Below, in pieces: positions 36,653-63,711 of a stretch of DNA of 64,000 bases (the stretch's first letter is position 1; each line of letters starts with the position of its first letter). A program made the translations under genes and the position numbers. The notes under the pieces are model-generated. The model was given only the letters and a program-made list of their open reading frames with translations. It was not told the DNA's origin and ran no database searches. Origin of the DNA: an uncultured delta proteobacterium (GTDB taxonomy: Bacteria > Myxococcota > UBA727 > VGSZ01); the NCBI GenBank assembly GCA_963775425.1, contig CAVZJB010000009.1, positions 272,616 through 336,615 of the forward strand, given 5' to 3'.

Positions 36653-36709
36653 GGCCGGGTTGTCGGCCGCGCCGGGGGAAATGACAAGGCACTATCGCGT
36701 GCGGACGGG

Positions 36710-38164
36710 TCAACCGCGGCCGAGGATCAGCCGGCCGTCGCGCGCGGTGACGTCGTCGCCGCGGCGAAAGACCTGTTGCCCGCGCAGCCACGTGGAGCGC
36801 ACCACGCCGAACAGCTCGCGGCCGTGGTACGGCGTGAGCTTGTTCTTGTGCGCGAGCTTCTCCTGGTCGACGACGAAGGTCGCGTCGGGGTCGATGACGG
36901 CGAAGTCGGCGTCCTTGCCCTTGGCGATGCTCCCCTTGCGAGAGAGCCCCGCGAGGAGCGCGGGCTCTTCGCTCATCCAGCGCGCCACGTCGACGAGCGT
37001 CCGTCCGCGGGCGCGCGCGCCGGTCCACGTGGCGGGCAGCGTGAGCTGGAGCGAGGAGATGCCGCCCCACGCGGCGTCGAAGTCGCCGCGCTCGACCTGC
37101 TTGAGAGCGACGGTGCACGGCGAGTGGTCGCTGACCACGCTGTCGAGGACGCCGCGGGCGAGCGCGTCCCAGAGGGCGTCCTGGTTTTCGCGCTCGCGGA
37201 TGGGCGGCGTGCACTTGAACCAGGTGGCGCCGTCGTCGATCTCCTCGGCGCAAAACGACAGGTAGTGCGGGCAGGTCTCGACGGTGAGCGGCAGGCCGTC
37301 GTCGCGCGCGTCCTCCAGCAGGGCCAGGGCCTCCGACGACGAGTGATGCACGATGTGCACGGGCCCACCGCGGGCGCGACACATGCGGACCATGAGCTCG
37401 ACGGCGGCGTTCTCCGACGCCTTGGGCCGGCTCTCGAGGTGGAAGCGATAGCTCCGCCGCGACAAGGCGCCGGAGGCGAGGGCGGCCTCGAGCGCGTGCG
37501 CGGCCTCGTCGATGGGCCCCTGCAATTCGGCGTGGGCGAGCAACGGGGCGCGCGCGTCCCGCAGGATCCCGAGGGAGCGATCCAGGTCCGCCTCGGAGAC
37601 GTTCTTGAACTCGGGGACGCCCGAGTCGATGAGGAAGCACTTGAAGCCGAGCACGCCGCGCTCGACCAGCGGGACCAGGTCCTCGTGGTTCCCCGGCACC
37701 ACGCCGCCCCAGAAGCCGACGTCGACGGCGAGCTGGTTCTTGGCGGCGTCGAGCTTGTCCTCGAACGCGGCGACGCTCGTGGTGGGCGGCAGGGAATTGA
37801 GCGGCATGTCGACGAGGGTGGTGACGCCGCCGCGCGAGGCCGCTTGCGTGGCGGTGGCGAACCCCTCCCACGCCGTGCGCCCGGGCTCGTTCACGTGCAC
37901 GTGGCTGTCGACGAGGCCGGGCATCACGAGCGAATCGAGGAAGTCCACGACGTCGACGCCGACGGGCACGCGGCCGCGCTCAACGACGTCTACGATCGCG
38001 CCGCCGTCGTCGACGAGCACCGCCGCCGGCCGCACGGCGCCGCCGGTGACCACGCGCGTCGACGTGAACGCCCGCGCGATCCCCCCGGCGGGCGCGCCGC
38101 CGCGCCACGCCGAGCGACCCTCGTCGTGGCGTGGGGGCTTGTTGTCGCTCGCCCCCGTCGTCAC
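36710..38164 (-). CDS. allB: Allantoinase (cyclic amidohydrolase)
   Basis: DSHVHVNEPG metal-binding motif and amidohydrolase fold. GTG start overlaps the upstream stop (GTGA). The Arg-rich N-terminal extension of ORF 36710..38581 was rejected. Confidence 0.75.
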   Translation of the reverse strand: MTTGASDNKPPRHDEGRSAWRGGAPAGGIARAFTSTRVVTGGAVRPAAVLVDDGGAIVDVVERGRVPVGVDVVDFLDSLVMPGLVDSHVHVNEPGRTAWEGFATATQAASRGGVTTLVDMPLNSLPPTTSVAAFEDKLDAAKNQLAVDVGFWGGVVPGNHEDLVPLVERGVLGFKCFLIDSGVPEFKNVSEADLDRSLGILRDARAPLLAHAELQGPIDEAAHALEAALASGALSRRSYRFHLESRPKASENAAVELMVRMCRARGGPVHIVHHSSSEALALLEDARDDGLPLTVETCPHYLSFCAEEIDDGATWFKCTPPIRERENQDALWDALARGVLDSVVSDHSPCTVALKQVERGDFDAAWGGISSLQLTLPATWTGARARGRTLVDVARWMSEEPALLAGLSRKGSIAKGKDADFAVIDPDATFVVDQEKLAHKNKLTPYHGRELFGVVRSTWLRGQQVFRRGDDVTARDGRLILGRG

Positions 38165-39807
38165 GGCGCCCCCGCGGCCGCGGGGCCGAAGGCGAAGTCG
38201 GCGGTGACCTCGCCGCCGGCGGGCACCGTCACGTGCACCGTCTTCTTGCCGCCGGCGTCGCTCCACGCGGTGAGCTCGACGTCGCCGGCGGGGACGCCGT
38301 CGAGGACGAAGGCCCCGTCGTCCTTGGTGACGGCGAACCACGGGTCGTCGACGACGCCGATGTGGTTGATCATCCACGGGTGGATGTCGCAGCGCGTCTC
38401 CACCATCAGCTCGGGCGCACGGAACACCTTGGTGTCCCGCTGCCCCTGCGCGGGCTGGTTGATGCTGAAGGTGTCGTTGTTTTGCGCCACCGAGCGGATG
38501 TTGTGAAAGACCGGGTCGGTGTTCACGAAGGTGACGGGCTGTCCCACGCGCACGCCGCTCACGCGCGGCTGGTAGAGGCACCCCTTCTGCTCGACGGTGA
38601 CCTCGCCCTGCGGCGCGGGGATGGCGTACTTGTCGACGCCGCCGGTGACGGCGACGAACGCCTCCGCGAGCTTTCCGTCATGAACGACCGCGGCGGGGAT
38701 GGACAGCGGCCCGTCGTGGCCGGCCTCACAGCCGCCGTAGAGCGCCACCTCGCGTGGCGCGGGGACGTCCCCCTGCCATGTGACGCTGCCGCGGATGCGG
38801 CCGGTGGCCGTGATGGGCGTGCCCGTCTTGGCTGCGTTCACGACGGGCGCGGCGCGGTCGTGGTCCGAGGCCAGCGTGCCCGCGACGGACGCGACGATGG
38901 TGACGACGACGAGCGTGCCGAGGAAGCCGAGCATGACCGTGGCCGGCGGGTCCACCTTGTTCATCCACCACTTCACGCCGGCGCCGGCGCAGCAGACCAC
39001 GACGAGGATCACCCAGTTCCACCCGATGGTGGTGCCGGCCACGTGGGCGGCGGCGCCGTAGGTGAACGGGAAGTGGTTGGAGATCATGATGAAGATGACC
39101 GGGTAGGTCATGTAGTGGTTGTGCTTGCTGCGGCGCTTGGCCGAGTACGCCTTGGCCGCGTCGGGCTCCTTGCCCGTCTTCACGCTCTCGACGAGGTTTC
39201 GCTGCGCCGGGATGATGCGCATCCAGACGTTGGCCACCATGCACGTGCCCATCACCGCCGCGGTGTGGATGTACGCCGCGCGGCCCGACAGGAGGTGCGT
39301 GAACGCGAAGGCGATGGCCGCGAGGCCGATGACCGAGATGGCCACCGTGAGCGGCGGGTTCTGCGACGCGGCGCCGGCGAGCCGGGAGGACCACAGGAGG
39401 TCGTAGGCGACCCAAGCGACGACGAGCGTGCCCATGCAGATGGCGGTGGCCACCTGATGCGAGACCACCGGGTGAGCGGCGTCGACGAGGAGGACGCCGC
39501 CGCCGAGGTGGTAGAGCACGATGAGGAGGAAGAAGCCGGTCATCCAGGTGAACGCGGCCTCCCACTTGAACCAGTGAAGCGTCGACGGCAGCGCGCTCGG
39601 CGCCACCAGCTTCTTTTCGACCTCGTAGAAGCCGCCGGAGTGCACCATCCACAGGACTCCCTCGAGCCCCTCCCGCTTCTCCTTGGGCTTCTCCATGTGG
39701 CTGTCGAGCCAATGGAAGAAGATGGACGAGCCGATCCACATGATGCCGGCGATGAGGTGCGCCCAACGCAGGACGAGGTTCAAGCCTTCACTGACGAGCG
39801 GATTCAT
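38161..39807 (-). CDS. PuuD-like (DUF989) integral membrane protein fused to a periplasmic type-1 copper cupredoxin domain; candidate membrane urate hydroxylase
   Basis: N-terminal ~330-aa multi-TM domain resembling urate hydroxylase PuuD. C-terminal TFVNTDPVFHN...ETRCDIHPWM carries a His/Cys-x2-His-x2-Met blue-copper site. Confidence 0.6.
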   Translation of the reverse strand: MNPLVSEGLNLVLRWAHLIAGIMWIGSSIFFHWLDSHMEKPKEKREGLEGVLWMVHSGGFYEVEKKLVAPSALPSTLHWFKWEAAFTWMTGFFLLIVLYHLGGGVLLVDAAHPVVSHQVATAICMGTLVVAWVAYDLLWSSRLAGAASQNPPLTVAISVIGLAAIAFAFTHLLSGRAAYIHTAAVMGTCMVANVWMRIIPAQRNLVESVKTGKEPDAAKAYSAKRRSKHNHYMTYPVIFIMISNHFPFTYGAAAHVAGTTIGWNWVILVVVCCAGAGVKWWMNKVDPPATVMLGFLGTLVVVTIVASVAGTLASDHDRAAPVVNAAKTGTPITATGRIRGSVTWQGDVPAPREVALYGGCEAGHDGPLSIPAAVVHDGKLAEAFVAVTGGVDKYAIPAPQGEVTVEQKGCLYQPRVSGVRVGQPVTFVNTDPVFHNIRSVAQNNDTFSINQPAQGQRDTKVFRAPELMVETRCDIHPWMINHIGVVDDPWFAVTKDDGAFVLDGVPAGDVELTAWSDAGGKKTVHVTVPAGGEVTADFAFGPAAAGAP

Positions 39808-40495
39808 CGACGATCTCTTTCGCGCTGAAGGTGTTGTCTGCCCAGGTATGCACGGGCACGCGGCGCGCGTCGAGGAGCGCGGTGCGCACCGGGTGGGCGA
39901 TGGCGCCGTCGGCGCCCGCGACGCCGTAGACGTTGAAGAGCGACGCGAACGCCTCCACCACGTCGGGCGCGCCCGTGGCGAGGGTGAACCCCGCGTCGCC
40001 GGCGACCGCGAAGCGCGCCGCGTACGCGCGCAGCGCCGCCGGCGTGTCCCGCGCCGGATCGAGCGTGACGACGAGGACGCGGGCGCCGTCGCGGCGTGCC
40101 TCGGCGAGCTTCTTCATGGTGAGCGGACACATGGTCTCGACGGGGCAGTGCGTATAGACAAAGCCCACGGCGACGGGCCCGGCGACGTCACCAAGCTCGA
40201 ACGCTTGCCCGTCCTGGTCGACGAGCGGAAACGACGGCACCGGTTGTCCGGGCCGCCACGCGGCGACGTCGGCGCGCCAGGCGTCGTGGCTGCGACAGGA
40301 CGTGAGCGCGAGCGCGGCGCCGAGGAGCGCGGCGCACACCGTCGGCCACGAGGCACGTTCGTCAGGGCGCACCTGGGGGCCAATAGCGGCGATGACGGCG
40401 GGTGCCAACGGCGGGGGCGCGCGGCGCCGTGAGGTCGGAGGCAACACGAGCGCGCCCACGCTGTGACGGTAGCGCGCCCGAGCGGGCGTGGGCAT
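39788..40495 (-). CDS. SCO1/SenC-like thioredoxin-fold copper chaperone lipoprotein
   Basis: Lipobox LALTSC and a YTHCPVETMCP motif in a thioredoxin-like fold. Its stop overlaps the PuuD-like gene start. Confidence 0.6.
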   Translation of the reverse strand: MPTPARARYRHSVGALVLPPTSRRRAPPPLAPAVIAAIGPQVRPDERASWPTVCAALLGAALALTSCRSHDAWRADVAAWRPGQPVPSFPLVDQDGQAFELGDVAGPVAVGFVYTHCPVETMCPLTMKKLAEARRDGARVLVVTLDPARDTPAALRAYAARFAVAGDAGFTLATGAPDVVEAFASLFNVYGVAGADGAIAHPVRTALLDARRVPVHTWADNTFSAKEIVDESARQ

Positions 40496-40560
40496 TGACG
40501 GTCCGTCCGGCGGGAAGGAAACGGGCTGATGATCCTCTGCACGCCTTCCCCGGTCGGCCC

Positions 40561-41922
40561 ATGAGCAACACGTCGCTGCCCCCCACGTTCCTCGCCGAGA
40601 CCACCGCGCGCCTGCGGGCCGCCAACGAGCCCGTCACCCGTCGCTTCGTCGGCGAGAGCGCCTCACGCCAGCCGGTGCACACGGTCTACGGCGGGGCGCA
40701 GCTCTTCAAGAAGGACGCGGCGTGGAAGCTCGGCCGCGGCGCGCTCAAGGCGCTCGACGAGTACGCGCCCTCGGCGGACGTGTTCGCGCGCGCCGCGGGC
40801 ATCCGCGCCGACGTCGCCGGCGTCGTGTACGAGCGCGTGCGCGAGAAGCTCGTGCGCGAGCCCGTCGAGGACATGCGCATCGACTTCGAGGACGGCTACG
40901 GCAACCGCCCCGACGACGAAGAAGACGCCGAGGCGGTGCGCTGCGCGCACGAGGTGGCCGCCGGCATGAAGGATCCGCGCGCGCCGGGCAGCGGGCTGCC
41001 GCCGTTCATCGGCATTCGCATCAAGACCTTCTCGGACGAGCTGTTCGCGCGCGCGGTGCGCACCCTCGACCTTTTCGTGAGCGCGCTCGTCAAAGACACC
41101 GGCGGTAAGCTGCCGGACGGCTTCGTCATCACGCAGCCGAAGATCACCACGGCCGAGCACGTCGCCGTCCTCGCCGACGTCCTCGAAGCGCTGGAGGAGC
41201 GCCTCGGCCTGTCGTCGGGGGCGTTGCAGCTCGAGGTGATGATCGAGGCGACGCAGTCCATCCTGGACATCGACGGCAGGATCGCCCTGCCCAGGATCCT
41301 CGACGCCGCGCGCGGCCGCTGCGTGGCCGCGCACTTCGGGACCTACGACTACACCGCGTCCAACAACATCACCGCCGCGTACCAGTCCATGGAGCACGCG
41401 GTCTGCGACTTCGCCCGCACCTTCATGTTGCAGGCGTACGCGGGCACGGGCGTGTGGCTCAGCGACGGAGCCACCAACGTGATGCCGGTGCCGGTGCACC
41501 GCGCGGCCGACGGCCACGCGCTCACCGCCGCGCAGGTCGCCGAGAACGTGTCGGTGGTGCACGCGGCGTGGGCGCTGCACGTGCGCCACATCCGCCACTC
41601 GCTGGAAAACGGCTACTACCAGGGCTGGGACCTCCACCCCGCGCAGCTCCCCACGCGCTACGGCGCGCTCTACGCGTTCTTCCTCGAGGCGCTCCCCGCG
41701 GCGAGCGAGCGCCTGAAGAACTTCGTGCAGAAGGCCGCGCAGGCCACGCTCGTGGGCGACGTCTTCGACGACGCCGCCACGGGCCAGGGCCTGTTGAACT
41801 TCTTCCTGCGCGGCATCAACTGCGGCGCCCTCAAGGAGGACGAGGCCCTCGCCACGGGCCTCACCCTCGACGAGCTGCGCGGCCGCAGCTTCGTCAAGAT
41901 CTTGAAGAACCGTCGGGGTTGA
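40561..41922 (+). CDS. HpcH/HpaI aldolase - citrate lyase beta (CitE)-like family protein
   Basis: ATG at 40561. GYYQGWDLHPAQL resembles the CitE/malyl-CoA lyase G..GK..IHP.Q motif. Confidence 0.5.
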   Translation: MSNTSLPPTFLAETTARLRAANEPVTRRFVGESASRQPVHTVYGGAQLFKKDAAWKLGRGALKALDEYAPSADVFARAAGIRADVAGVVYERVREKLVREPVEDMRIDFEDGYGNRPDDEEDAEAVRCAHEVAAGMKDPRAPGSGLPPFIGIRIKTFSDELFARAVRTLDLFVSALVKDTGGKLPDGFVITQPKITTAEHVAVLADVLEALEERLGLSSGALQLEVMIEATQSILDIDGRIALPRILDAARGRCVAAHFGTYDYTASNNITAAYQSMEHAVCDFARTFMLQAYAGTGVWLSDGATNVMPVPVHRAADGHALTAAQVAENVSVVHAAWALHVRHIRHSLENGYYQGWDLHPAQLPTRYGALYAFFLEALPAASERLKNFVQKAAQATLVGDVFDDAATGQGLLNFFLRGINCGALKEDEALATGLTLDELRGRSFVKILKNRRG

Positions 41923-41932
41923 AGGCAGCGGC

Positions 41933-42943
41933 ATGCCCGTCGCCAATCCGGTCCAGTTCGCCGTGGTGCGCGAGGATCCCGTCGTCGAGCTCTCGCTCCT
42001 CGCGGACGTCCGGCGCGGCGCTTCGACCGCGGCGCTGCTCATCGCCTCGGGCGGCTGCACGGCGCTCACGGTCGCGGCGGCGCGCCCCGACGTGGCGCTC
42101 ACGCTGCTCGATGCGAACCCCGCCCAGCTCGCCCTCGTCGAGCGAAAGCGCGCCGCGCTCGCCGCGCACGCGCCGGGGTCGGCCGCGCGGCGGCGCACCT
42201 TCGGCGTCGACGCGGACGACGCGGCGTCCCTGTCGGGGTGCGGCAACTTCGAGTCGCTGTTTCGCGGGCTGCGCGCCGTGCTCGATGACCTGGTGATGCC
42301 GGCGGCCGAGCGGCGCGCGCTCCTCGCGGGCGACGGCGGCGCGGGCGCGCTCACCGGCAACAGGTACTGGCCGGTGGCGTTCGAGATGTTCTTCTCCGAC
42401 GCCATGCTCGAGGCCATGTTCGGGCCCGAGGCCACGCAGCACGCGGACAAGGGCTCGTACCCGGCGTACTTCCGCCGCGTCGTCGAGCGCGCCCTCGCCG
42501 GCGGCGCGGGGGGAGCGCCGGCGCGCGCGAACCCGTATCTTCACCACGTGTTGCTCGGCCACTACCTCGACGGCGCTCTGCCGGCGTTCCTGGAGCGCAT
42601 GACATGCGCGCAGGCGGAGGGCGCGCGCTTCAATCTCGTCGAGGGGAGCGTGACGCGGGGGCCGTCCTTCTCGGCGTTCGACCTCGTGTCGCTGTCGAAC
42701 CTCTTCGACTGGATGAGCGACGACGACGTGGCCGCGACGTGCGCGCGCCTCGCCGCCGAGTCCAAGCCCGGCGCCGTCGTGGTCTTGCGCCAGCTCAACA
42801 ACCGCGCTCCGGTCGAGCGCTTCTTCGGCGACGCGTTCCGCTTCGACGACGCACGCGCCGCGGCGCTCCTCGCCCGCGACCGCAGCATGTTCTACGAGCG
42901 CCTCGTGGTCGGCACGCGGGTCGCCGGCGGGGGTGGCGCATGA
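41933..42943 (+). CDS. DUF3419 (BtaA-like) family protein
   Basis: IASGGCTAL...DANPAQLALVERK resembles the DUF3419 signature. Confidence 0.45.
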   Translation: MPVANPVQFAVVREDPVVELSLLADVRRGASTAALLIASGGCTALTVAAARPDVALTLLDANPAQLALVERKRAALAAHAPGSAARRRTFGVDADDAASLSGCGNFESLFRGLRAVLDDLVMPAAERRALLAGDGGAGALTGNRYWPVAFEMFFSDAMLEAMFGPEATQHADKGSYPAYFRRVVERALAGGAGGAPARANPYLHHVLLGHYLDGALPAFLERMTCAQAEGARFNLVEGSVTRGPSFSAFDLVSLSNLFDWMSDDDVAATCARLAAESKPGAVVVLRQLNNRAPVERFFGDAFRFDDARAAALLARDRSMFYERLVVGTRVAGGGGA

Positions 42944-45709: not shown

Positions 45710-47662
45710 GTGTGCGGCATCGTCGCCGTCCTGCGCCTCGGCGAGCGTCCGCTGCCCGGGGACGACGCGGTACGCGCGATGACCCGAGCCATCGCTCACC
45801 GCGGCCCCGACGGCGAAGGCTTCCATCGCGACGACGACGTCGCGCTCGGCGTGGTGCGGCTGGCGGTCGTCGACGTCGGGCACGGGCGGCAGCCGGCGCG
45901 CGGCTGCCGCGGCGCCGGGCCCGTGTCCGTCGTGAACGGCGAGCTCTACGAGCACCGCCCGCTGCGCGCGGAGCTCGCCGCGCGGCACGAGATCGTCGAC
46001 GCGTGCGACGCCACGCTGCTGCCGCATTTGTACGAGGACCACGGCGCCAACATGGTGCTGCACATGCACGGCATGTTCGCCTTTGCGCTGTGGGACCGGC
46101 GCGAGCGCACGCTGCTCCTCGGCCGCGACCGCCTCGGCATCAAACCGCTCTTCTTCGCCGTCACGCCCGACTTCCTCGTTGCTGCGTCGGAGGCAAAGGC
46201 GATCTTCGCCTCCGGCCTCGTCCAGCCGCGCATCGATCGCGACGCCGTCGACGACCTCTTCTCCCTGGGGTACCCGTGCCCGCCGCGCACGATGTTCGCC
46301 GGCGTCACTGCGGTGCCCCCGGGGCACACGGTGACGGCTCGCGCGGGCGGCGGCGCACAGCGAGGCCGCGTCGACGCCGCTCGCCGCTACTGGCGCGCGC
46401 CGCTGTCTCCGCCGGCGCACACCGGCCAACGAGGGTCGCCCGCGGGGTCGGCCGCCGACGTCCACGACGCCCTCGCCGCCGCCTTGCGCACGCACCTCGA
46501 CGCCGACGTCCCCGTGGCCACGTGGCTGTCCGGAGGGCTCGACTCGTCCGCGGTCTCGGCGCTCGCGCGCGAGGCCGCCGGCGCGCCGCTCCCCGCGTTC
46601 GCGCTCACGTTCCCGGGAGACCCCGAGGGGCTCGACGAGAGCGCACCCGCGCGCGCCGTCGCCCGCTTCCTCGGCGCGGACCTGGACGAGGTGCCCATGG
46701 GAGCTCCGGCGGCTTCGTTGCTCGAGCGCATGACGTGGCACCTCGAGCTCCCGCTCCTCGTCCCCGGCGCGCTCGGCGGCCTCCTGCTCTCCGAGCGGCA
46801 GCGCGCGCGAGGCTTCAAGGTCACGCTCACCGGCGACGGTGCCGATGAGGTGCTCGGCGGCTACGACGTGTTTCGCGCGAGCCGCGCGCGCCGGCTCCTC
46901 GGGGCGCGCGCGTTCTCCGCCGCCGTCGTCGCGGGCGACGCGCTCGGCCTCCTCTCGCCGCGCGGCATCGGTGCGTTCCTCGCGCAAAACGCCCGCGCGC
47001 CACGGACGGACATCGTCGCCCGCGCGTACGGCGGCGTGCGCCCACCCTGGCTCGAGCAGTGGGCGCTCCTCGACGTCGAGCGCGCGGCGCTCCTGTCGCC
47101 CGACGGCAGGCGCGTGCGCCCGATCGAAGAGGCGCCCGCGGGCTTCGCCGCTTTGGTGCGCGAGGACGCCGTCGCGCTCGATCCGCTCGACGCCGAGATC
47201 GCGCTGGAGCTGGAGACGCGCCTGCCCGCGTGGATCCTGGTCATCGGTGATCGCTCATCGATGGCCCACGGGGTCGAGGCCCGCTTGCCGTTCCTCGACG
47301 ACGACGTCGTGCGCACGCTCCTCGCCGTCCGGCCGGCGCTGAAGATGCGCGGGATGCGCGAGAAGGCCGTGCTGCGCGACGCCGTCGCGGGGCTGCTGCC
47401 GCGCGCCATCGTGCGGCGCAGGAAGCAGCCGTTCATGACGCCGATCGCGCCGTGGTTCTTCCCGCCGGGAGCTACGCCGCCCGCCCTGACGCGCGCGCGG
47501 CTCGAGGACGCCGGGCTGTTCGACGCCGCCGTCGTCGCGCGGCTCCTCACGCGTCTGCACACCTCGCGCCCCGGGACGCTCGAGCGCGTCCGGCTGGAGA
47601 TGGTGCTGATGCTCGTCCTCGGGACGCAGCTCCTGCACGCGTCTTTCGTGGCCAGGGCTTAG
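45710..47662 (+). CDS. Asparagine synthetase (glutamine-hydrolysing) family amidotransferase / amide- or beta-lactam-synthetase-like
   Basis: GTG start followed by Cys2 (MCGIVAV), as in Ntn glutaminases. PP-loop WLSGGLDSS. ~650 aa. Confidence 0.8.
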   Translation: MCGIVAVLRLGERPLPGDDAVRAMTRAIAHRGPDGEGFHRDDDVALGVVRLAVVDVGHGRQPARGCRGAGPVSVVNGELYEHRPLRAELAARHEIVDACDATLLPHLYEDHGANMVLHMHGMFAFALWDRRERTLLLGRDRLGIKPLFFAVTPDFLVAASEAKAIFASGLVQPRIDRDAVDDLFSLGYPCPPRTMFAGVTAVPPGHTVTARAGGGAQRGRVDAARRYWRAPLSPPAHTGQRGSPAGSAADVHDALAAALRTHLDADVPVATWLSGGLDSSAVSALAREAAGAPLPAFALTFPGDPEGLDESAPARAVARFLGADLDEVPMGAPAASLLERMTWHLELPLLVPGALGGLLLSERQRARGFKVTLTGDGADEVLGGYDVFRASRARRLLGARAFSAAVVAGDALGLLSPRGIGAFLAQNARAPRTDIVARAYGGVRPPWLEQWALLDVERAALLSPDGRRVRPIEEAPAGFAALVREDAVALDPLDAEIALELETRLPAWILVIGDRSSMAHGVEARLPFLDDDVVRTLLAVRPALKMRGMREKAVLRDAVAGLLPRAIVRRRKQPFMTPIAPWFFPPGATPPALTRARLEDAGLFDAAVVARLLTRLHTSRPGTLERVRLEMVLMLVLGTQLLHASFVARA

Positions 47663-47829
47663 GGCCCCCGAATGAACAACTCGATCGCCCTCGCGGCCGA
47701 TCCATCGCCGCTGGCTTCGTTGCTCGTCGGTCACGTGGCGACGGCCACGCTCCCTCCTCGCGCCTCGCCATCGGCGCGCCTCGACCGCGATCATCGACCG
47801 ACTTGTTCATTCGAGGGCCCTTAGCCCTC
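47653..47829. mobile_element. MITE-like palindromic element: ~34-bp imperfect terminal inverted repeats (GGGCCCCCGAATGAACAA / TTGTTCATTCGAGGGCCC) flanking ~100 bp, bounded by TTAG on both sides, lying exactly between two convergent TAG stops
   Basis: Seen in sequence: left arm 47653-47686, right arm 47789-47829; ~30 of 34 positions are complementary. Confidence 0.45.
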
Positions 47830-50800
47830 TAGATCGCGTCGGCCGCGCCGACGTCGGCCTGCGGGGCGGCGGCGAGGGAGCGCGGACGCGCGGGGCGCTT
47901 GTCGACGACCTCGTCGATGAGGCCCGTGATGCACGTGGCCATGCGCTCGATGTTCTCGCTCCGAAACAGCTCGAGGTGCGAGCCCTTCACCGTGACGACG
48001 TCGATGCGACCCTTGACCCAGCGGCGCCAGCCGTTGGTGGGATCGTCCATGCGCGTGGCCGGCCAGCGGAAGGGATGCTCGGCGACAAAGAGCAGGAGCG
48101 GCGCCGTCTCTCCGTTCTGTTTGGGCATGTACGCGAGCTGGGCCTGCGTGAGGATGGCCCAGATCTGCTTCATGCGATCTTCGCGCTCACGGTCGGCGCC
48201 GTCGACGGCGGGCGCGAGCAGCTCGCCGAGGCCGAGCTTGAAGAGCAAGCGGCGGCGCACGTTGTCGATGCGATCCTTCACGTAGTTGAAGCGGCCCAAG
48301 GCGTCACGCCTGCGCAGCTCCTCGACATGCGCGAGCGCGCGCTCCATGCGCGGAAGCTTCTCGGGATAGCCGGGCGCGAAGGCGTCGAACGCGACGATGG
48401 CGCCGACGTTCTTCCCGCGCCGGCGCAGCCGGTGCGCGAGCTCGTAGGCGACCATGGCCCCGAAGCTGTAGCCGCCGACGACGAGCTGCTGCCCCGACAG
48501 CCCGCGCGCGTCGAGCTCGCGCTCGTAGGCCGCGGCGATCTCCTCGACCGACTCGCGTGGCAGGTCTTCGCCGTCGGCGCCGATGGCGGTGAAGGCGTAG
48601 ACGGGTTGATCGGGCCCGAGCCGCTGCGCGAGCTCGCGAAAGATGAACACCTGGCCGCCCGCGCCGGACACGATGAGCAGCGGCGGGCGCGTCCCGTGCG
48701 CGTTCAACACGACGAGGTGGCTCTGCGGCTCGGACGTCGCGCGCTCGCCGTCGCCGAGGCTCTGCGCGAGCGCGGCGATGGTGGGCTTCGCCAGGATGCG
48801 CGACAGCGGGACGTTGATGCCCAGCTCCTTCTTCAGCCGCGACACCACCACGACCGCGAGCAGCGAGTGGCCGCCCATGTCGTCGAAGAAGTCGTCGTGA
48901 ACACCCACCGGCGCGCGCAAGACGTCGCTCCACAGGGCGACGAGCTTCTCCTCGAGCGGGGTGCGCGGTGGGGACAGCGCGCGCCGCTCGAGGACGAGCG
49001 CCGGATCAGGGAGCGCCGCGCGGTCGAGCTTGCCGTTGGAGGTGACCGGCAGGCGGTCGAGCCGCACCAGGGCCGAAGGCACCATGAAGTCCGGCAGCGC
49101 CGCAGCCACCGCCGCCTTCAACGACGGCGCGTCGAAGGGCTGCGCCGCATGGAGCGGCACGACGTACGCCACCACGGCCTTCGCGCCGGAGGCGTCGGGG
49201 CGCGCGACGCACACGACGTCGCGCACGCCGGGCTGCTTGCGCAGCACGGCTTCGATCTCGCCGAGCTCGACGCGGAAGCCGCGCACCTTCACCTGGAAGT
49301 CGGCGCGCCCGAGGAACTCCATGGTGCCGTCGTCCCAGAAGCGCGCGAGGTCGCCCGTCTTGTAGATGCGCTCGCCCGGGAGGAACGGATCGGGGAGGAA
49401 CCGCTCGGCGGTGAGCTCCTCGCGGTTGAGGTAGCCGTCGGCGAGGCAGAGGCCGCCGATGTAGAGGTCGCCGGCGATGCCGGTGGGCGCCGGGCGCATG
49501 TGGCGATCGAGGATGTAGTAGCGGGCGTTGTCGATGGGACGGCCGTAGGGGATGGAGCGCCACGACGGGTCTACGTGGCCGATGCGGTGGAAGTTCGACC
49601 AGATGGCGGCCTCGGTGGCGCCGCCGAACGACACGGGTTCCACACCCTCGAACACCTCGCGCAGGTGGTCGGGCAGCTTGACCGGGATCCAGTCGCCGGA
49701 CATGAGCGCGAGCCGCAGCGTCGACGACGGCGCGCGCGCCGGAAAGAACGGCGCGAGCCGCGCCAGCGCCGGCGGCGCGGAGTCCCAGATGGTGATGCCG
49801 GGCGCGGTGAGCTTCTTCACCAGGAGCTCCGGCTCGCGCAGCGTCTCCACCGAAGCGATCTCGACGACGGCGCCGGCGCCGAGCGCGCCGAAGACGTCGT
49901 AGACGGACAGGTCGAAGCTCGGGGACGTGACGAACAAGAGCTTGTCGCGCGGGCCGACGCTGAAGGTGCGGTTCACCCACTGCAGCGTGTTCGTCACCGC
50001 GCGGTGCGTGAGCACCACGCCCTTGGGCCTGCCGGTGCTGCCCGACGTGTAGATGGCGTAGCTCACGTCCCTCGAGGCGGCGACGCGCGCGGGCCGGGTG
50101 TCGGGAGCGCCCTGCACGTCCGCGCCGTCGACGCCCAGGATGGGGATGCCCGGCGGCGGCGCGCCGTCGCCGTGGCCCCACGGCAGCGACGACGACGTCA
50201 CCACCGCCACCGCTCGCGCGTCTTCGACCATGAAGCGCGCGCGCTCTTCGGGGTAGCCCGGGTCCACGGGCACATATGCCGCACCGGACTTGGCGATGCC
50301 GATCATCGTGGTGACGAGGTCGAAGTTGCGGTCGAGCAGGAACGCCACGTATTGGCCGGGCTTCACCCCGCGGGCGCGCAGCGCGTGGGCGAGGCGGTTG
50401 GCGCGCCGCTCCACCTCGGCGAAGGTGAGCGTCTCTCCCTCGAATTCCAGGGCGACGTCGTCAGGCCGCGCGTCCACCTGCTCCTCGAAGAGCGTGTGGA
50501 TGAGGATCTCGTCTGAAAACGGCGCGGCCGTGTCGTTCCAGCCGAAGACCTGCCGCTTGCGGGTCTCGTCGTCGAGGAGGTCGACGCGCGCGAGGGGCTT
50601 TTCGGGATCCGCCGCGACCTGCGCGCACACCGCGGAGATCTGCTCCACCAGCGCGCGCACGCGGGGCGTGTCGACCGCGCCTTCGTCGACGACGAGCGAC
50701 GCCTGTCCGCCGCTCAGGCGCAGCGCCAGGACCGCGCCCGGCGGGAGGGCCTCGCCGTCGTCGAGCAGGACGGCCACGCACGACAGCGCGCTCGTCTGGA

Positions 50801-52202
50801 GCGCGCGGCTGGGGGAGAGCACAGGGGTACGCGCGACGAGGTCGACGAGGTAGCCGCCGCGGCGGCGGAGCTCGTCGAGGTCCTTTCGCACCGCGCGCAC
50901 CAGCTCCGCGAAGCCGCGCCCCGCGTCCAGGCCGACGAACAACGGGACGGTGGGCGCCAACAAGGCCGAGGCGGCTTCGAAGCGCTTGCGCACGGGGCCG
51001 TCTACGAGGGCGACGCACAGCTCGTCGCGGTCGCACAGCGTGGCCATGGCGAAGGAGAACGCGGCGGTGGCTGCGGCCTCGATGTCATCGGCGAAGCGCG
51101 AGCGCAGCTCGGGCAGGGGGAGCGAGTGCACCGACGTTTGTCCCGGCGGCCCCGCCGCCGACAAGAACGGCACCGCCGGCGACTCCGCGCGCGCGAGGCG
51201 CTTGACGAAGAACGGCTCGGCCTCGGCGATCTCGCGGGTGATCGCCGCGCGGCCCTCGCGTCCGGGATCGACGATCTGTCCACCGGGCTTGAGTCCCAGG
51301 TAGTGCAGCGCCTCCTCGACGGAGATCTCGACTCCGCTCAGGAGCGACGTCCGCTCCACGCGCAGCGCCCCCTGGGCGCACGCCACCACGAAGGAGCGGG
51401 CGTCGGCCTCGAGGACGGTGCCCGGGCCCCCGCCCGCGCCGGACACCGACGCCTCACGCACGACCACCGCGCGCTCCCCCGCCGACGTCTTGTGCACGAG
51501 CTTGGCGAGGGCGAAGCGGTTGATGTACGGGCCCCAGTCGCAGGCGCGCACGAGCCGGTCGAGCTCGGCGGCCGTCTGGCTCCAGTCGAGAGTGGCCAGG
51601 GCCGCGGGGCGATCGTGACGCGAGAAGATCAGCCGCTCGCCGCCGGGGTTCGTCCCCTTCGGCTGGGGGATGCCCGGCGGCGCGCCGTGCTCGAGCTTCT
51701 CGACGAGAGACTTGAAGGCGTCGAGCGCGAGCGCGGCGTTCTTGATGTTGAGGGAGACGGAGCTCTCGCGCTCCTCGATGTCGACGTCGCGGCGCTCGAG
51801 GATGTCGCCGGTGTCGATGCCGTCGGCGAGGCGATGCCACACCACGGCGTGCGTGCGCTCGCCGCGCAGGAGCGCCCACGCCGAGCCGTGAATGCCCGCG
51901 TAGCGGGGCAGCGGTCCGTCGTGGAAATTGACGGCGTCGATGCGCGCCTTGGTGAAGTGCTCGGCCTTGAGGATGGCGGGGTACGTGATGGACAAGAGGA
52001 CGTCGATGTCGCCGGCGGCCATGAGCTCACCGATGCGCGCGCGCCCGTAGACCGGCACGTCCTTGCCCCGCGCCCACTCGGCGAGGGCCGGGTTGAGCGT
52101 GACGAGGCCGGCGAGGGCGTGCCCCCGCTCCAGGAGGAGCTCGCCGCACGAGACGGCGAGCGGCTCTTCTCCGAGGACGAGGCAGCGAAGGTGCGCGGGC
52201 AC
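47829..52202 (-). CDS. Non-ribosomal peptide synthetase, single module: formyltransferase-like domain, ~260-aa C-domain-like linker lacking HHxxxDG, adenylation, PCP, thioesterase
   Basis: Fmt-like NFHDGPLPRYAG. A-domain motifs YTSGSTGRPKG, YKTGDL, GRADFQVKVRGFRVELGEIE, NGKLDR. PCP motif DDMGGHSLL. TE motif GYSFG. Confidence 0.9.
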   Translation of the reverse strand: MPAHLRCLVLGEEPLAVSCGELLLERGHALAGLVTLNPALAEWARGKDVPVYGRARIGELMAAGDIDVLLSITYPAILKAEHFTKARIDAVNFHDGPLPRYAGIHGSAWALLRGERTHAVVWHRLADGIDTGDILERRDVDIEERESSVSLNIKNAALALDAFKSLVEKLEHGAPPGIPQPKGTNPGGERLIFSRHDRPAALATLDWSQTAAELDRLVRACDWGPYINRFALAKLVHKTSAGERAVVVREASVSGAGGGPGTVLEADARSFVVACAQGALRVERTSLLSGVEISVEEALHYLGLKPGGQIVDPGREGRAAITREIAEAEPFFVKRLARAESPAVPFLSAAGPPGQTSVHSLPLPELRSRFADDIEAAATAAFSFAMATLCDRDELCVALVDGPVRKRFEAASALLAPTVPLFVGLDAGRGFAELVRAVRKDLDELRRRGGYLVDLVARTPVLSPSRALQTSALSCVAVLLDDGEALPPGAVLALRLSGGQASLVVDEGAVDTPRVRALVEQISAVCAQVAADPEKPLARVDLLDDETRKRQVFGWNDTAAPFSDEILIHTLFEEQVDARPDDVALEFEGETLTFAEVERRANRLAHALRARGVKPGQYVAFLLDRNFDLVTTMIGIAKSGAAYVPVDPGYPEERARFMVEDARAVAVVTSSSLPWGHGDGAPPPGIPILGVDGADVQGAPDTRPARVAASRDVSYAIYTSGSTGRPKGVVLTHRAVTNTLQWVNRTFSVGPRDKLLFVTSPSFDLSVYDVFGALGAGAVVEIASVETLREPELLVKKLTAPGITIWDSAPPALARLAPFFPARAPSSTLRLALMSGDWIPVKLPDHLREVFEGVEPVSFGGATEAAIWSNFHRIGHVDPSWRSIPYGRPIDNARYYILDRHMRPAPTGIAGDLYIGGLCLADGYLNREELTAERFLPDPFLPGERIYKTGDLARFWDDGTMEFLGRADFQVKVRGFRVELGEIEAVLRKQPGVRDVVCVARPDASGAKAVVAYVVPLHAAQPFDAPSLKAAVAAALPDFMVPSALVRLDRLPVTSNGKLDRAALPDPALVLERRALSPPRTPLEEKLVALWSDVLRAPVGVHDDFFDDMGGHSLLAVVVVSRLKKELGINVPLSRILAKPTIAALAQSLGDGERATSEPQSHLVVLNAHGTRPPLLIVSGAGGQVFIFRELAQRLGPDQPVYAFTAIGADGEDLPRESVEEIAAAYERELDARGLSGQQLVVGGYSFGAMVAYELAHRLRRRGKNVGAIVAFDAFAPGYPEKLPRMERALAHVEELRRRDALGRFNYVKDRIDNVRRRLLFKLGLGELLAPAVDGADREREDRMKQIWAILTQAQLAYMPKQNGETAPLLLFVAEHPFRWPATRMDDPTNGWRRWVKGRIDVVTVKGSHLELFRSENIERMATCITGLIDEVVDKRPARPRSLAAAPQADVGAADAI

Positions 52203-52237: not shown

Positions 52238-54094
52238 TTATCGGTAGCCACGTGCCTGCAGATCGAACATCTCGGCGTAACGACCGCGCTTGCTCATGAG
52301 CGTGTCGTGCGTGCCGCGCTCGACGACCCGGCCCCTCTCGAGCACGACAATCTGATCTGCCGTGCGCACCGTGGAGAACCTGTGCGAAATCACGATGCCG
52401 ATTCGCCCGCGCAACAGACCGCGCAGCTCGGCGAAGATTTCTGCCTCCGCGGCCGGGTCGAGGTTCGCCGTGGGCTCGTCGAGGACCCACACGTCGGCGT
52501 CGCGGTAGATGAGGCGTGCGAGCGCGAGGCGTTGCCATTGGCCCCCGCTCAAGTCGTGCCCTCCCTCGAACAAGCGGCCGACGACGGACCCCAGTCCGTG
52601 CCCGATCTCGTCGACGATGCCGTCCGCGCGCGCGGACGCGAGCGCGCGTTCCGCCCGCTCCCGGTCGAACGGCAAGGAGATCCGGCCGAAGCGCAAGACG
52701 TCCTGCACCTCGAGCTCGTAGGCGCCGTAGTCTTGGAACAGCACCCCGATCCTGTCGCGCAGGCGCTCGGGGTCGGCGGCGCGCGCGTCGACGGCGACGT
52801 CGACGCCGTCGACGGGGCCCGAGAAGACGATCCGCCCCTCGTCGGGATCGAAGAAGCGGCACAGGAGCTTCACCAGGGTGCTCTTGCCGGCGCCGTTTTC
52901 GCCCACCAGCGCGAGGATCTCGCCGGCGCGCACCTCGAGGTCGACGCCGGCGAGCGCGCCCCGCTCCTCGTCGTGGCCCGGGTACCGGAACGACACGTTC
53001 TCGAGCGCCACCCGCGTGATGCGCTCGGGGAGGGCCTTCGCGACGGCCGGGGCGCGAACGGTGGGCTCGATGGCGAGGAAGCTGAAGTAGTCGTCGATGA
53101 ACTGCGCGTGCTCGTCGACGGTGACCAGCGAGCCGAGCGTGGCGCCGAGGTTGCTCGTCAGGGCGGTGAAGGCGCCGAAGATCGCGGCGACGTCGCCGAT
53201 GCTGAGGGTGCCGCGGGTGCCGGCGCCGGCGATGAAGATGTAGGCGACCAACAAGAGCGAGGCGGAGCCGGCGCCGCCGAGGAGGTCGAGGACGTTGGCG
53301 TCGCGGTAGAGCCGCCGCTTTTGCTCGAGCCGATCGAGCGACATGGCCTTGGCCCGGTCGACCACGTGCTGCGCCAGGCCGAACGCGCGCACGTCCTTGG
53401 CGAAGTGCGGCTCCGACGCCACCTGCACCATGTAGTCGTGCTCGCGCTCGCGGCGGGTGGTGCGCCAGAAGAGCTCGTAGAAGCGGCGGTTGGTGCGGAG
53501 CTTCATCAACGCCACCGGCAGCACGGAGAGCACGCCGAGGGGGACGAGCCGCGCGTCCAGGACGAACAGCGCGGAGCACAGGGTGACGAGCGTGATCGTC
53601 GACGAGAAGATGTGGATGAGCGTGAGCGTGAGGTTGTACGGGCGCCAGCCCACGTCGGCGCGGGCGCGCTGCAGCCTGTCGTGCCACGCGGGGTCGTCGA
53701 GGAGCGCGAGGTCGGCGGTGGCGACGTGCAGGAGGAACTTCTTGTGGGCGGACATCCAGACGCGGTCGGAGAACACGTCGTGGACGCGCCCGGTGAACGC
53801 CTGCAGCGATTGATTGAGGACGGCGAGGCCGCCGAGCGCGAGCACCGGGAAGAGCACCCGGTGATCCCGCCACGACGACGGGTGCGCCGCGATGCCGTCG
53901 ATGAGCCTGCCCGTGGCGAGGAGCGTCAGCGGCGTCAGCACGGCGCTCACCACGGTGAGCGCGAGGACGGTGCCCATCTGCCGCGGCGCCGCCTCCCAGG
54001 CGAGCGCCAGCGTGGCGCGCACGTTCCGCCAGATGCGCGCGGGTCGCGGCAGCATCTTGCGCACGGGCGGCGTCTCCTGGGCAGGCGCGGTCAT
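52238..54094 (-). CDS. ABC transporter, fused permease/ATP-binding exporter
   Basis: Six TM segments followed by Walker A GENGAGKST, signature LSGGQWQRLALAR and Walker B VWVLDEPT. ATG at 54092-54094. Confidence 0.8.
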   Translation of the reverse strand: MTAPAQETPPVRKMLPRPARIWRNVRATLALAWEAAPRQMGTVLALTVVSAVLTPLTLLATGRLIDGIAAHPSSWRDHRVLFPVLALGGLAVLNQSLQAFTGRVHDVFSDRVWMSAHKKFLLHVATADLALLDDPAWHDRLQRARADVGWRPYNLTLTLIHIFSSTITLVTLCSALFVLDARLVPLGVLSVLPVALMKLRTNRRFYELFWRTTRREREHDYMVQVASEPHFAKDVRAFGLAQHVVDRAKAMSLDRLEQKRRLYRDANVLDLLGGAGSASLLLVAYIFIAGAGTRGTLSIGDVAAIFGAFTALTSNLGATLGSLVTVDEHAQFIDDYFSFLAIEPTVRAPAVAKALPERITRVALENVSFRYPGHDEERGALAGVDLEVRAGEILALVGENGAGKSTLVKLLCRFFDPDEGRIVFSGPVDGVDVAVDARAADPERLRDRIGVLFQDYGAYELEVQDVLRFGRISLPFDRERAERALASARADGIVDEIGHGLGSVVGRLFEGGHDLSGGQWQRLALARLIYRDADVWVLDEPTANLDPAAEAEIFAELRGLLRGRIGIVISHRFSTVRTADQIVVLERGRVVERGTHDTLMSKRGRYAEMFDLQARGYR

Positions 54095-55056
54095 CAATAT
54101 CCCGCGGCGACGTCGACCACGCCGAGGAGCGGCTCCCGCGCGGCGTAGCGGCGGACGTTGTCGCGCACGCGCTCCTTCAGGAGCGGCACCGCCATCTCGG
54201 GCGTGTTCCCGACGTGCGGCGTGATGACGCAGCGCTCGCTGCGCCACAGGGGGTGATCCTCCGGGAGCGGCTCGGGATCGGTGACGTCGAGCGCGGCGCC
54301 GCCGATGACGCCGCGCGCGAGCGCGTCGACGAGGGCGCCGGTGTCGACGAGGGCGCCGCGCGCGACGTTCACGAGCCAGGCGTGCCGGGGCATGCACGCG
54401 AGCTCCGCGGCGCCGATCATCCCCCGCGTCTCCGGCGTCAGCGCCGCGGCGAGGAACACGACGTCCGCCCCGGCGAACGCCTCGCGCCGCGCTTCGAACG
54501 TCACCGTCCGCACCAGACCGTCGCCGCCGGCGAACGGGACGCTCCGGCGCCTGACGACGGTGAGCGCGCAGCGAAACGGCGCCAGCAGCGCGACCAGGCT
54601 CCGGGCGATGCCGCCGGCGCCGACGATGACGACCTTCCCGCCGAGGAGCGAGAGCCCATCCGCGGGCCCGCCGTTCGGCCGCACCCAGGAGCGCGCGAGC
54701 GCGCGTGCCTTCAGGTTGCGCAGCCCGGCGAGCGCCAGGGCGAGCGCGTGCTCGGCGACGGGGGCGGCGTACACGCCCTGTCCCGCGGTGAAGCGGTGGT
54801 TGTCGTCGAGGACGCTGAGGAACGGCTCGATGCCCGCCCACGGCAACTGCACCCAGCGGATGTTGTCGTGCAGATCGAGGAGGGCGCGCAGGTCGGCGGC
54901 CCCCGTCGAGCTCGCCCAGACGAGACCCTCGGCGTCCTCGGGGGAAGCGAGCGCGGCGCCGCCTTCGACGACGGCGTCCTCGAGGAACGGGCGCACGCCC
55001 TTCGGCGCCACGCAGACCTTCAGCGCGCTCACGGCGCCGATGATGCACGGCGCCAC
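54094..55056 (-). CDS. D-isomer-specific 2-hydroxyacid dehydrogenase family protein (NAD-binding)
   Basis: GxGxxG motif VGAGGIARS. Motifs GAALDVTDPEP and ITPH. Confidence 0.7.
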   Translation of the reverse strand: MAPCIIGAVSALKVCVAPKGVRPFLEDAVVEGGAALASPEDAEGLVWASSTGAADLRALLDLHDNIRWVQLPWAGIEPFLSVLDDNHRFTAGQGVYAAPVAEHALALALAGLRNLKARALARSWVRPNGGPADGLSLLGGKVVIVGAGGIARSLVALLAPFRCALTVVRRRSVPFAGGDGLVRTVTFEARREAFAGADVVFLAAALTPETRGMIGAAELACMPRHAWLVNVARGALVDTGALVDALARGVIGGAALDVTDPEPLPEDHPLWRSERCVITPHVGNTPEMAVPLLKERVRDNVRRYAAREPLLGVVDVAAGY

Positions 55057-55138
55057 CGGCCGCGGGAAGCGCGGAAGCGAAAGCGCGCCCCACGGGGGGC
55101 GCGCGCAGATCAGCGACCGGAGGGAGCGGCCGCGCAGA

Positions 55139-57064
55139 TCACAGGGTCTTGAGGAACGCGACGAGGTCGGCCTTGTCCTGGAAGGACAGGTTGGAGCCGT
55201 GGCCCATCTTGTCGGTGGCCACCAGGCGCTCGACGACGTCCTCGAGCGTGGCCGCGGAGCCGTCGTGCAGGTACGGCGCGCTCTCGATGAGCCCGTGCAG
55301 CACCGGCGTGGCGAACTCCGAGGACCAATCGAGGTTGTCGCCGCCGGTGCCGACGCTGTGGGTGAGGTTGTCGGTGAAGGCGTCGCCGGCGTGGCACTGG
55401 CCGCAGCCGGCGCTGCCGTAGAACAGCTCCTCGCCGTGGGCGACGGCCTGCGCGTCGAGGCCGCTCGGCGGCATGGGTGCCGGGATCTGGTCGAGGAATT
55501 TGCCGACCTTGTTCATGGCGGTGGCGTCGAGGCCGTTGCCGCCCATGCGGCCCACGATGGTGACGTCGCTGATGCCGGCCATGTTCGGCACGCTCTGATC
55601 CCAGTGGAAGGGCTCGGTGCCGAGGATGCCGCCCCACAGCGCGGGCGCGTTGCGCGGGCCCTCGGCGAAGTGCCAGGTGGTGCCGTCGGGGCCGCCGCCC
55701 GGGTGGCAGGAGTCGCAGGAGATGGCGCCGAACTTCGTGAGGTCGTCGTTGACGCTGTAGAAGAGCACGCGGCCCTCACGCACGTCGGCGGGCAGCACGG
55801 GCGCCGCAACGGTGAACGTGTTGTCGACGGAGATCTTCTTGAGCGCGCCGGCGCTGCCCCCGGCGTAGCGAGACTTGGCCGAGGCGTCGGCCGGCACCGC
55901 GAAGCTCGAGATGGTGTCGTCGAAGGCGTTGTAGACGTACGCCGTGGTCCCGTCGGGGGAGACCTGGATGGACTCGACGCCGACCTTCAGCGGCACCACC
56001 GCGACGATGGACGGCTCGCCCTCGCCGATCACCGGCCGGCGCACGATGACGTTGCCCGAGCCGCGCGCGACCACGAGCTGGAGCTTGCCGCCGTCGACGG
56101 TGGCGATCTCCTGCGGCCCGTTGAAGGTCTCGTCGTGCAGGAGGTTGCGGTTGAGCGCGTCGACCACGGGCGCGGCGTCACCGGCGTGCTCGGGGGCGCT
56201 GCCGTTGGCCTCCTCGAGGGGCCGGTTCTCGTCGGACAAGAGCGAGCCCGACGCCGGGTCCACGCGGCTGACGGCCGGGTTCACCGCCGGGTAGCCCGTG
56301 GGGCCGTCGACGTAATACGTGACCGAGGGCTGACCGGCGAAGTTGGTGCCGCCGAGGAACTGGGCCGGGTCGTTGTTGCACTCGACGTGGGGGACGACGA
56401 CGCCGTCGCCGTCCGCGCTCGCGGTGATGCTCCCCATCTGGTTGGGGAAGAAGAACTGCTTGGAGGGCAGGTGCATGTCGACGTCGGCCGCGACGTTGTC
56501 GCCGTCGATGATGGACACGTAGCCCGCGGTGAAGTGGGTGACGGCGACGCGGCCGTCCTCGAGGCGCACGATGCCGCGCGGGTCGCCGTGGTGGAGCGTG
56601 ATGCGCGAAGCGACGCGCGTCGGATCCGCGAGGTCGATGCGCGCGAGGTCGCCCTCGCCGGCGACGGCGACGAGCACGGCGTGACCGACCTGAACGAGGC
56701 CGAAGGGATCGCTGCCGACGTCGGCGGTGCCGTCCACGGTGCCCTTCTCGACGTTCACCACCGAGACGGTGCCGGCGTAGCGCGCGCTCACGGCGACGCG
56801 GCCGTCGTCGAGGACGGTGAGGCGGTGGGGATACCCGGGCACCGCGACCTCGCCGAGCTTGGCGCCGCTGTGGGCGTCGACGGCGCGCACCAGGTCATGG
56901 TCGGCGAGGGCGACGTAGAGAGTCTTTCCGTCCTTGGAGATCTGCATGCGGCCGGTCTGCGGCGCGCTCGCCGGACCGATCTTCACGTCGGGCTCGCAGC
57001 CCGATGCCAGCGAGAGGGAGAGCAGCGCGATGGGTACGGCGACGGCGAGGTGTCGAACGAGCAT
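55139..57064 (-). CDS. Lipoprotein with YVTN-type beta-propeller repeats and C-terminal di-heme cytochrome c domain
   Basis: Lipobox LASGC. CDSCH and CGQCH heme motifs. Confidence 0.65.
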   Translation of the reverse strand: MLVRHLAVAVPIALLSLSLASGCEPDVKIGPASAPQTGRMQISKDGKTLYVALADHDLVRAVDAHSGAKLGEVAVPGYPHRLTVLDDGRVAVSARYAGTVSVVNVEKGTVDGTADVGSDPFGLVQVGHAVLVAVAGEGDLARIDLADPTRVASRITLHHGDPRGIVRLEDGRVAVTHFTAGYVSIIDGDNVAADVDMHLPSKQFFFPNQMGSITASADGDGVVVPHVECNNDPAQFLGGTNFAGQPSVTYYVDGPTGYPAVNPAVSRVDPASGSLLSDENRPLEEANGSAPEHAGDAAPVVDALNRNLLHDETFNGPQEIATVDGGKLQLVVARGSGNVIVRRPVIGEGEPSIVAVVPLKVGVESIQVSPDGTTAYVYNAFDDTISSFAVPADASAKSRYAGGSAGALKKISVDNTFTVAAPVLPADVREGRVLFYSVNDDLTKFGAISCDSCHPGGGPDGTTWHFAEGPRNAPALWGGILGTEPFHWDQSVPNMAGISDVTIVGRMGGNGLDATAMNKVGKFLDQIPAPMPPSGLDAQAVAHGEELFYGSAGCGQCHAGDAFTDNLTHSVGTGGDNLDWSSEFATPVLHGLIESAPYLHDGSAATLEDVVERLVATDKMGHGSNLSFQDKADLVAFLKTL

Positions 57065-63708: not shown

Positions 63709-63711
63709 GGG

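Follow-up and report, generated by a model that had tools for sequence, protein, structure and literature searches.

A palindromic element between convergent biosynthetic genes of an uncultured myxococcote, very probably a miniature inverted-repeat transposable element with ISAzo13-type ends

In a stretch of 64,000 nucleotides (henceforth the window; positions 272,616 to 336,615 of contig CAVZJB010000009.1, assembly GCA_963775425.1) from an uncultured member of the Myxococcota, a long palindrome fills the gap between two convergent biosynthetic genes. The + strand encodes a 650-residue AsnB-like glutamine-hydrolysing asparagine synthase (45710-47662; Pfam Asn_synthase, 2e-69, together with GATase_7/6), whose TAG stop codon (47660-47662) overlaps the left junction of the palindrome. 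On the - strand, a gene for a nonribosomal peptide synthetase (NRPS)-like protein with formyltransferase, adenylation, PCP and thioesterase domains (47829-52202; Pfam AMP-binding, 3e-76, Thioesterase, PP-binding and Formyl_trans_N/C) ends 8 nt from the other side, with its stop codon at 47829-47831. An earlier reading made from the letters without database searches (the sequence-only reading) had correctly placed the palindrome between these two stop codons and had proposed a MITE-like element of IS5 type or, alternatively, an unusually long bidirectional terminator. We find that the palindrome is very probably a 159-bp non-autonomous miniature inverted-repeat transposable element (MITE; 47662-47820) whose ends match those of 1.33-kb DDE insertion sequences of the ISAzo13 family.

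A repeat finder placed inverted-repeat arms of 34 nt at 47654-47687 and 47795-47828, 88% complementary and spaced 107 nt apart. The window contains exactly two matches to their core, the 18-mer GGGCCCYCGAATGAACAA, inverted with respect to each other, and none of 100 dinucleotide-preserving shuffles contained two or more matches. The arms of about 34 bp described by the sequence-only reading are therefore real and far beyond chance, but the outer 8 nt of each are host flank and target-site duplication, and pairing is not confined to the arms and runs through nearly the whole element. Since every copy of the family introduced below carries GGGCCC at its start and end, we place the element at 47662-47820, a body of 159 bp from GGGCCC to GGGCCC that has the length and ends of the copies in a Kofleriaceae metagenome-assembled genome (MAG) and that lies, in the better-folding family orientation, on the - strand. 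The left terminal inverted repeat (47662-47687, + strand, 26 nt, GGGCCCCCGAATGAACAACTCGATCG) resembles the ends of ISAzo13-family insertion sequences, and the right one (47795-47820, 26 nt, GGGCCCTCGAATGAACAAGTCGGTCG when read on the - strand) shows only one difference from the 22-nt family consensus GGGCCCGCGAATGAACAAGTCG. Across the family the terminal inverted repeats measure about 26 bp, with the consensus GGGCCCGCGAATGAACAAGTCGRYCG.

A TTA stands on each side of the element. The left copy of this target-site duplication (47659-47661) supplies the TA that forms, together with the first G of the element, the TAG stop codon of the AsnB-like gene; the right copy (47821-47823) is assigned from the sequence and from the family-wide duplication pattern. 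Outside the element and its duplication lie the host flanks AGGGC (47654-47658) and GCCCT (47824-47828), which are complementary to each other. The apex is a stem-loop in the predicted fold, CGTGGC-GACG-GCCACG (47734-47749), the most variable part of the family, in which pairing is kept by double substitutions. At 159 bp the element is small and lacks a transposase gene, and the only open reading frames (ORFs) that run across it are artefacts of frame overlap in G+C-rich sequence. A search against Rfam 15 found no known RNA family, the sole match (Xoo8, 12.6 bits against a gathering score of 90) being a chance one outside the element.

Removal of the element and one TTA yields the reconstructed pre-insertion junction GGCTTAGCCCTCTAG, which reads ...GGC TTA GCCCT CTA G... 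and leaves 4 nt between the convergent stop codons. Insertion leaves the AsnB-like stop codon (TA plus G) unchanged and the NRPS-like one untouched, and neither protein is altered. For these neighbouring biosynthetic genes the insertion appears harmless, with both frames and both stops intact.

The element belongs to a dispersed family. Reference genomes, one per prokaryotic species and the source genome not among them, were scanned for exact matches to GGGCCCNCGAATGAACAA. The arm 18-mer was found at 39 loci, about 25 of which are full-length homologues in Myxococcota MAGs that share about 160 nt and not the arm alone. Twelve loci fall in the Kofleriaceae MAG JAGPCY01, where 11 have the element, 10 of them as near-identical copies of 159/160 bp, while the Myxococcales MAG nzgw251 has four loci, Baikal-deep-G131 three and SJ783 two. 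Metagenome contigs contain the same 18-mer at 120 or more loci. Related copies of 93-196 bp, over 100 of them, are thus carried by Kofleriaceae, Haliangiales and other Myxococcota MAGs and by metagenomes, so that a check put forward with the sequence-only reading, for further copies with conserved terminal repeats, gave a positive answer in related genomes.

Among the matches listed, we retained 69 distinct sites of MITE size, with both ends present and duplicates removed; many of the metagenome copies probably come from one population, and the counts given here are of sites, not of independent lineages. Dozens of these sites lie in one group of metagenomes. The element is 178 bp long at 41 of the 69 sites and 159 bp at 10, the rest being variants or deletion derivatives of 93 to 309 bp. 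Compared over its full length, the copy in the window shares 80-85% identity with the copies at L161, L117, L019 and L007. At two loci, tandem copies have one TTA in common (L002, 2363-2617, and L131, 4217-4575), and the pair at L002 consists of a 93-bp internal-deletion derivative and a 159-bp copy.

Two further family members have themselves received insertions. On a 2.2-kb contig binned as Thiohalocapsa (L031, 303-2210), an insertion of about 1.8 kb interrupts the MITE close to its apex, such that MITE positions 1-60 and 96-159 flank a segment carrying a 456-residue IS110-family transposase (PF01548 and PF02371). IS110-type elements target palindromic repeats, and the MITE family may perhaps serve as an IS110-type landing site. 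At L151 (250-1869), an insertion sequence of about 1.46 kb is nested in the MITE apex; it has a 462-residue ORF and the ends CTCTCGAT...ATCGAGAG, lies between copies of an 8-9 bp direct repeat, (A)CTGGTTGT, and looks IS4-like.

The many insertion sites define the duplication. Identical 3-bp flanks are present at 43 of the 69 sites (TAA/TAA at 21, TTA/TTA at 20), while the outer 4 bp are identical at only one. The sequence-only reading had noted TTAG at both outer junctions, which is literally there (47659-47662 and 47821-47824), and had taken it for a 4-bp YTAR duplication. The actual duplication is 3 bp, TWA, and the G is the first base of the element on the left. Counting the first G of the element in, the TTAG register fits 18 of the 69 sites, a number that we judge, without a computed expectation, to be about the chance of a following G in G+C-rich DNA. 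A target logo built from the 43 sites shows S-TWA-S and nothing beyond. The complementarity of AGGGC and GCCCT is therefore a feature of the local host flank, and the idea of a longer palindromic target, which these flanks had raised, was rejected. The tandem copies with a shared TTA fit the same target, because each junction recreates S-TWA-S, into which a copy could reinsert. Family-wide (loci L043-L162), seven of the 69 sites pair a TTA flank with a TAA flank, a difference at the central base alone that is commoner than any other class of mismatch; such flanks could possibly arise by recombination between copies or by repair at the central position.

The family also has transposase-bearing relatives with the same ends. 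At L061, L065 and L083, insertion sequences of 1331-1339 bp are bounded by the terminal repeats of the MITE family, and their 404-408 residue proteins match the NCBIfam model NF033519, "ISAzo13 family transposase", with 539-553 bits (cutoff 200). L005 preserves the C-terminus of such a transposase (PF07592 DDE_Tnp_ISAZ013, E = 1e-37), with its stop codon 9 nt short of GACTTGTTCATTCGCGGGCCC, after which comes TTA. The ISAzo13 C-terminus likewise ends 9 nt before ...GACTTGTTCATTCGCGGGCCC and then TTA or TAA at L040, L041 and L042, and the end shared by the relatives of the L005 fragment reads ...tgaCCGGnnGACTTGyyyATTCGCGrGCCC, again followed by TTA or TAA. Both ends of a 1.33-kb element are visible at L042, flanked by TAA. 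The ends of the insertion sequences and of the MITEs are identical at 23-27 of their first 30 nt, and similarity stops after about 27 nt. The MITE thus has the transposase-binding ends, and not the interior, in common with the insertion sequences, and an interior derived from insertion-sequence ends was rejected on the same grounds. ISAzo13 and the eukaryotic Zator are related (PMC5718144), and both are reported to make 3-bp duplications (PMC10045372), as does the family described here.

The insertion sites are concentrated at gene ends. The stop codon of an ORF with 100 or more codons overlaps the duplication at 42 of the 69 sites, as against 31.7% of all TAA/TTA trinucleotides at the same loci (odds ratio 3.3, Fisher p = 3.5e-6), and under a stricter gene criterion 31 of the 69 sites are on stop codons. 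On the simplest reading, TWA is rare at more than 70% G+C, those TWA trinucleotides that are tolerated are often stop codons, and insertions within genes are lost; with TAA and TTA so rare outside stop codons and intergenic DNA, surviving copies gather at gene ends. The window copy, on the stop codon of the AsnB-like gene and 8 nt from that of the NRPS-like gene, is a typical case of this site preference.

Almost the whole element is predicted to form one long imperfect hairpin of 54-58 pairs. The folding check suggested with the sequence-only reading bears out a very stable structure, at -101.4 kcal/mol on the + strand (z = -6.6 against shuffled sequences) and -127 kcal/mol on the - strand (z = -10.5). 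In an alignment of 11 copies from five sources, 95.8% of the cells that make up the 54 predicted pairs are paired. Double-sided changes are seen at 13 pairs, as against 5.8 +/- 1.4 in shuffles (none of 500 shuffles reached the observed number), and only 2-5 pairs show such changes when the partners are slid by 1-3 columns. Among 10 representatives that are less than 90% identical to one another, compensatory changes occur in 21 of 58 pairs. Apical pairs vary as UA/CG, AU/CG/GC and CG/GC/AU, and the apical sequence is almost wholly replaced while the stem is kept.

Folded as RNA, the orientation found on the - strand of the window is more stable than its complement in 15 of 16 representatives; conserved G-U positions account for the difference, which reaches 29 kcal/mol. 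With respect to the gene whose stop codon adjoins it, the element is oriented at random (13 versus 15), and an orientation-specific function in the 3' untranslated region was rejected on this count. Between 47300 and 48200 neither strand has a terminator-like site with a U-tract or a sigma-70-like promoter signature; the tails that follow the hairpin are GGGCCCTTAGCCCTCTAG on the + strand and GGGCCCTAAGCCCTGGCC on the - strand. A role at the transcript level is possible and might consist in a block to read-through, protection of 3' ends or an effect on termination or RNA stability. Upkeep of the hairpin could also reflect arm-to-arm templated repair of the DNA palindrome, or a structural need during transposition.

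How do the alternatives fare against these data? The IS5 assignment of the sequence-only reading, in which a MITE with a 4-bp YTAR (TTAG) duplication would be tied to an IS5-type remnant in the same window, draws on the TTAG at both junctions and on the fact that some IS5 subgroups duplicate 3-4 bp containing TA. The remnant exists as well, as a Pfam and NCBIfam screen of 79 candidate ORFs showed: at 15562-16131 on the - strand, a 190-codon open frame matches Pfam DUF772 (E = 6e-9) in its N-terminal region only and the IS1182-family model NF033551 partially (63.5 bits, below the cutoff of 270), and it is a fragment of the IS1182 family, which is IS5-related. However, this remnant is 31.5 kb from the MITE, and no arm-like or MITE-like ends were found near it. 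Moreover, the TTAG register would put the repeats out of register (GGCCCC at the left end against GGGCCC at the right), of the sites counted above only 18 have G as the fourth base and a single one has identical outer 4 bp, and all transposase-bearing relatives with these ends (GGGCCCGCGAATGAACAAG type) are of the ISAzo13 family. We therefore consider an IS5 origin very improbable. Less credible still is a repeat of REP/REPIN type mobilised by a RAYT (IS200/IS605-like) enzyme. REPINs are dispersed, hairpin-forming extragenic repeats whose structure is kept by compensation, and the likeness to the present family is evident. Against it stand the long terminal inverted repeats, like the ends of DDE insertion sequences, and the target duplication, neither of which REP/REPIN elements have, to our knowledge. 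There is no linked RAYT gene either, and the partner found is of the ISAzo13 family.

The remaining two alternatives concern function at the gene ends. An immobile, host-evolved long bidirectional terminator or RNA-stabilising hairpin would account for the position exactly between convergent stop codons, for the very stable fold of both strands (-101 and -127 kcal/mol) and for the compensatory changes that conserve the hairpin. Yet neither strand has a U-tract or a terminator-like site, orientation relative to the adjoining gene is random, and more than 100 homologous copies occur at unrelated loci with target duplications and with transposase-bearing relatives. The dispersed family refutes a terminator as the sole explanation, and we regard an immobile hairpin of host origin as highly unlikely, although the hairpin may have a secondary effect on transcripts. 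A MITE by origin could nonetheless have been exapted since, with selection keeping a gene-end hairpin that blocks read-through or protects the 3' ends of both transcripts. The high proportion of paired positions, the excess of double-changed pairs and the compensatory changes, the better fold of one strand in nearly all representatives and the enrichment at stop codons all speak for such a history. Set against it are the lack of an orientation bias with respect to the upstream gene, a gene-end enrichment that is also expected from TWA scarcity and purifying selection, compensatory changes that can also arise in DNA palindromes by arm-to-arm templated repair, and sequences that come from few lineages. 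On balance we think exaptation unlikely. Doubtful to much the same degree is a broader proposal, namely that the family, with its compensated full-length hairpin and its better-folding strand, is a structured RNA or single-stranded DNA module delivered by transposition onto dozens of stop codons in uncultured Myxococcota, a portable gene-end signal without a U-tract. If true, such a signal would insulate convergent genes from read-through or protect their 3' ends, and in the window the pair insulated would be the NRPS-like and AsnB-like genes, which initially had 4 nt between their stop codons.

Returning to a MITE of ISAzo13 type, we infer from the terminal repeats and flanks how the window copy could have arrived. 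An ISAzo13-family transposase supplied in trans would bind the two terminal repeats, integration would take place at TWA in an S-TWA-S context with a 3-nt staggered cut, and repair of the cut would leave the TTA...TTA duplication. By this route the copy would have come to lie between the AsnB-like and NRPS-like stop codons, then separated by 4 nt, and a hairpin of about 55-58 bp would form part of read-through transcripts from both genes. The data show the family, its ends, its duplication, its partner insertion sequences and its site preference; mobilisation in trans, and any ability of the window copy to move at present, are proposed from sequence comparison.

Several observations weigh against this interpretation. 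About one third of the family sites listed lack a perfect duplication. The window copy is no more than 85% identical to any other copy, and somewhat diverged as it is, it may perhaps be an old, immobile relic; at position 7 both of its arms deviate from the consensus G, with a T that also occurs in other copies. The 64-kb window contains just this one copy and no solo arm, and no ISAzo13 transposase gene was found in it, either by Pfam screening of candidate ORFs or by tblastn. Nor was an empty site found, a degenerate 28-nt pattern of the pre-insertion junction being unmatched in the metagenome contigs. The flanking AsnB-like protein is 100% identical to the 650-residue P0121 of the protein collection, and its next-best homologue is just 61% identical. 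A weak tblastn match to ISAzo13 fragments at 7389-7526 (E = 0.002) was rejected, as Pfam confirmed it on neither of the overlapping ORFs.

Comparison with known systems places the element as follows. The terminal repeats of about 26 bp match those of the ISAzo13-family elements (NF033519, PF07592; related to eukaryotic Zator) at L061, L065, L083 and L042, and the 3-bp duplication is of the kind reported for that family (PMC10045372), whereas the window element is only 159 bp long, has no transposase gene and has an interior that is dissimilar beyond about 27 nt. On these grounds the core of the sequence-only reading, a MITE-like element, stands: related genomes contain dispersed homologous copies that share its ends, and its terminal repeats recur on autonomous partners. 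Its assignment to IS5 gives way to ISAzo13, the family of the partner transposase.

Well-known bacterial MITEs include Correia (Neisseria), ERIC/IRU (enterobacteria), RUP (Streptococcus pneumoniae) and Nezha (cyanobacteria). Like these, the present family is small, has terminal inverted repeats and a short duplication, occurs in many intergenic copies and would form a whole-element hairpin in transcripts. It differs in its transposase family, in its target (TWA with 3 bp duplicated here, TA for Correia) and in its hosts, which are uncultured Myxococcota; a promoter, an IHF site or a processing site, moreover, are not among the features seen here. With IS5-family elements and their MITEs, and with the TWA targets of their eukaryotic relatives (PIF/Harbinger), it shares short duplications and an A/T-containing target centred on TA or TWA, but its partner is not of the IS5 family, a 4-bp YTAR duplication does not describe its sites, and the IS1182-like fragment lacks similar ends. 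Rho-independent bidirectional terminators resemble it as G+C-rich hairpins between convergent genes, but it has no U-tract, its stem of about 55-58 pairs is far longer, and it belongs to a family of transposed repeats. As a kind of element it is thus ordinary, a bacterial MITE; this particular family is absent from the literature searched, whose coverage is incomplete and in which we found neither a link between ISAzo13 and MITEs nor a description of a MITE family in Myxococcota or myxobacteria.

The surroundings of the AsnB/NRPS pair have features of their own. Upstream, at about 29000-42000, lies a set of genes for purine/urate catabolism (urate oxidase N-terminal domain, OHCU decarboxylase, HIUase/transthyretin, allantoicase and an amidohydrolase). 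At about 54000-64000 there are flagellar genes (flagellin N and C domains, FliD and an FlgE/F/G-type C-terminus); the best protein matches of the window are to Polyangia-type Myxococcota MAGs, and flagella are atypical of this group. From 24000 to 28000 the G+C content rises to 0.79-0.81, as against about 0.71 elsewhere, coinciding with a 1209-codon ORF on the - strand (24057-27683).

For the annotation of this locus, the palindrome between the AsnB-like and NRPS-like genes is best corrected to a transposon relic, neither a terminator nor an IS5 derivative, with exact boundaries and an exact duplication. The family is a MITE family tied to the little-studied ISAzo13 family, with a defined end sequence, an S-TWA-S target and more than 60 natural insertion sites, and these ends, target and sites could serve as a starting point for a transposition assay or for a model to annotate Myxococcota MAGs. 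Through its preference for stop codons and its conserved long hairpin, the family connects a mobile element with the biology of 3' ends in G+C-rich genomes in a way that can be tested.

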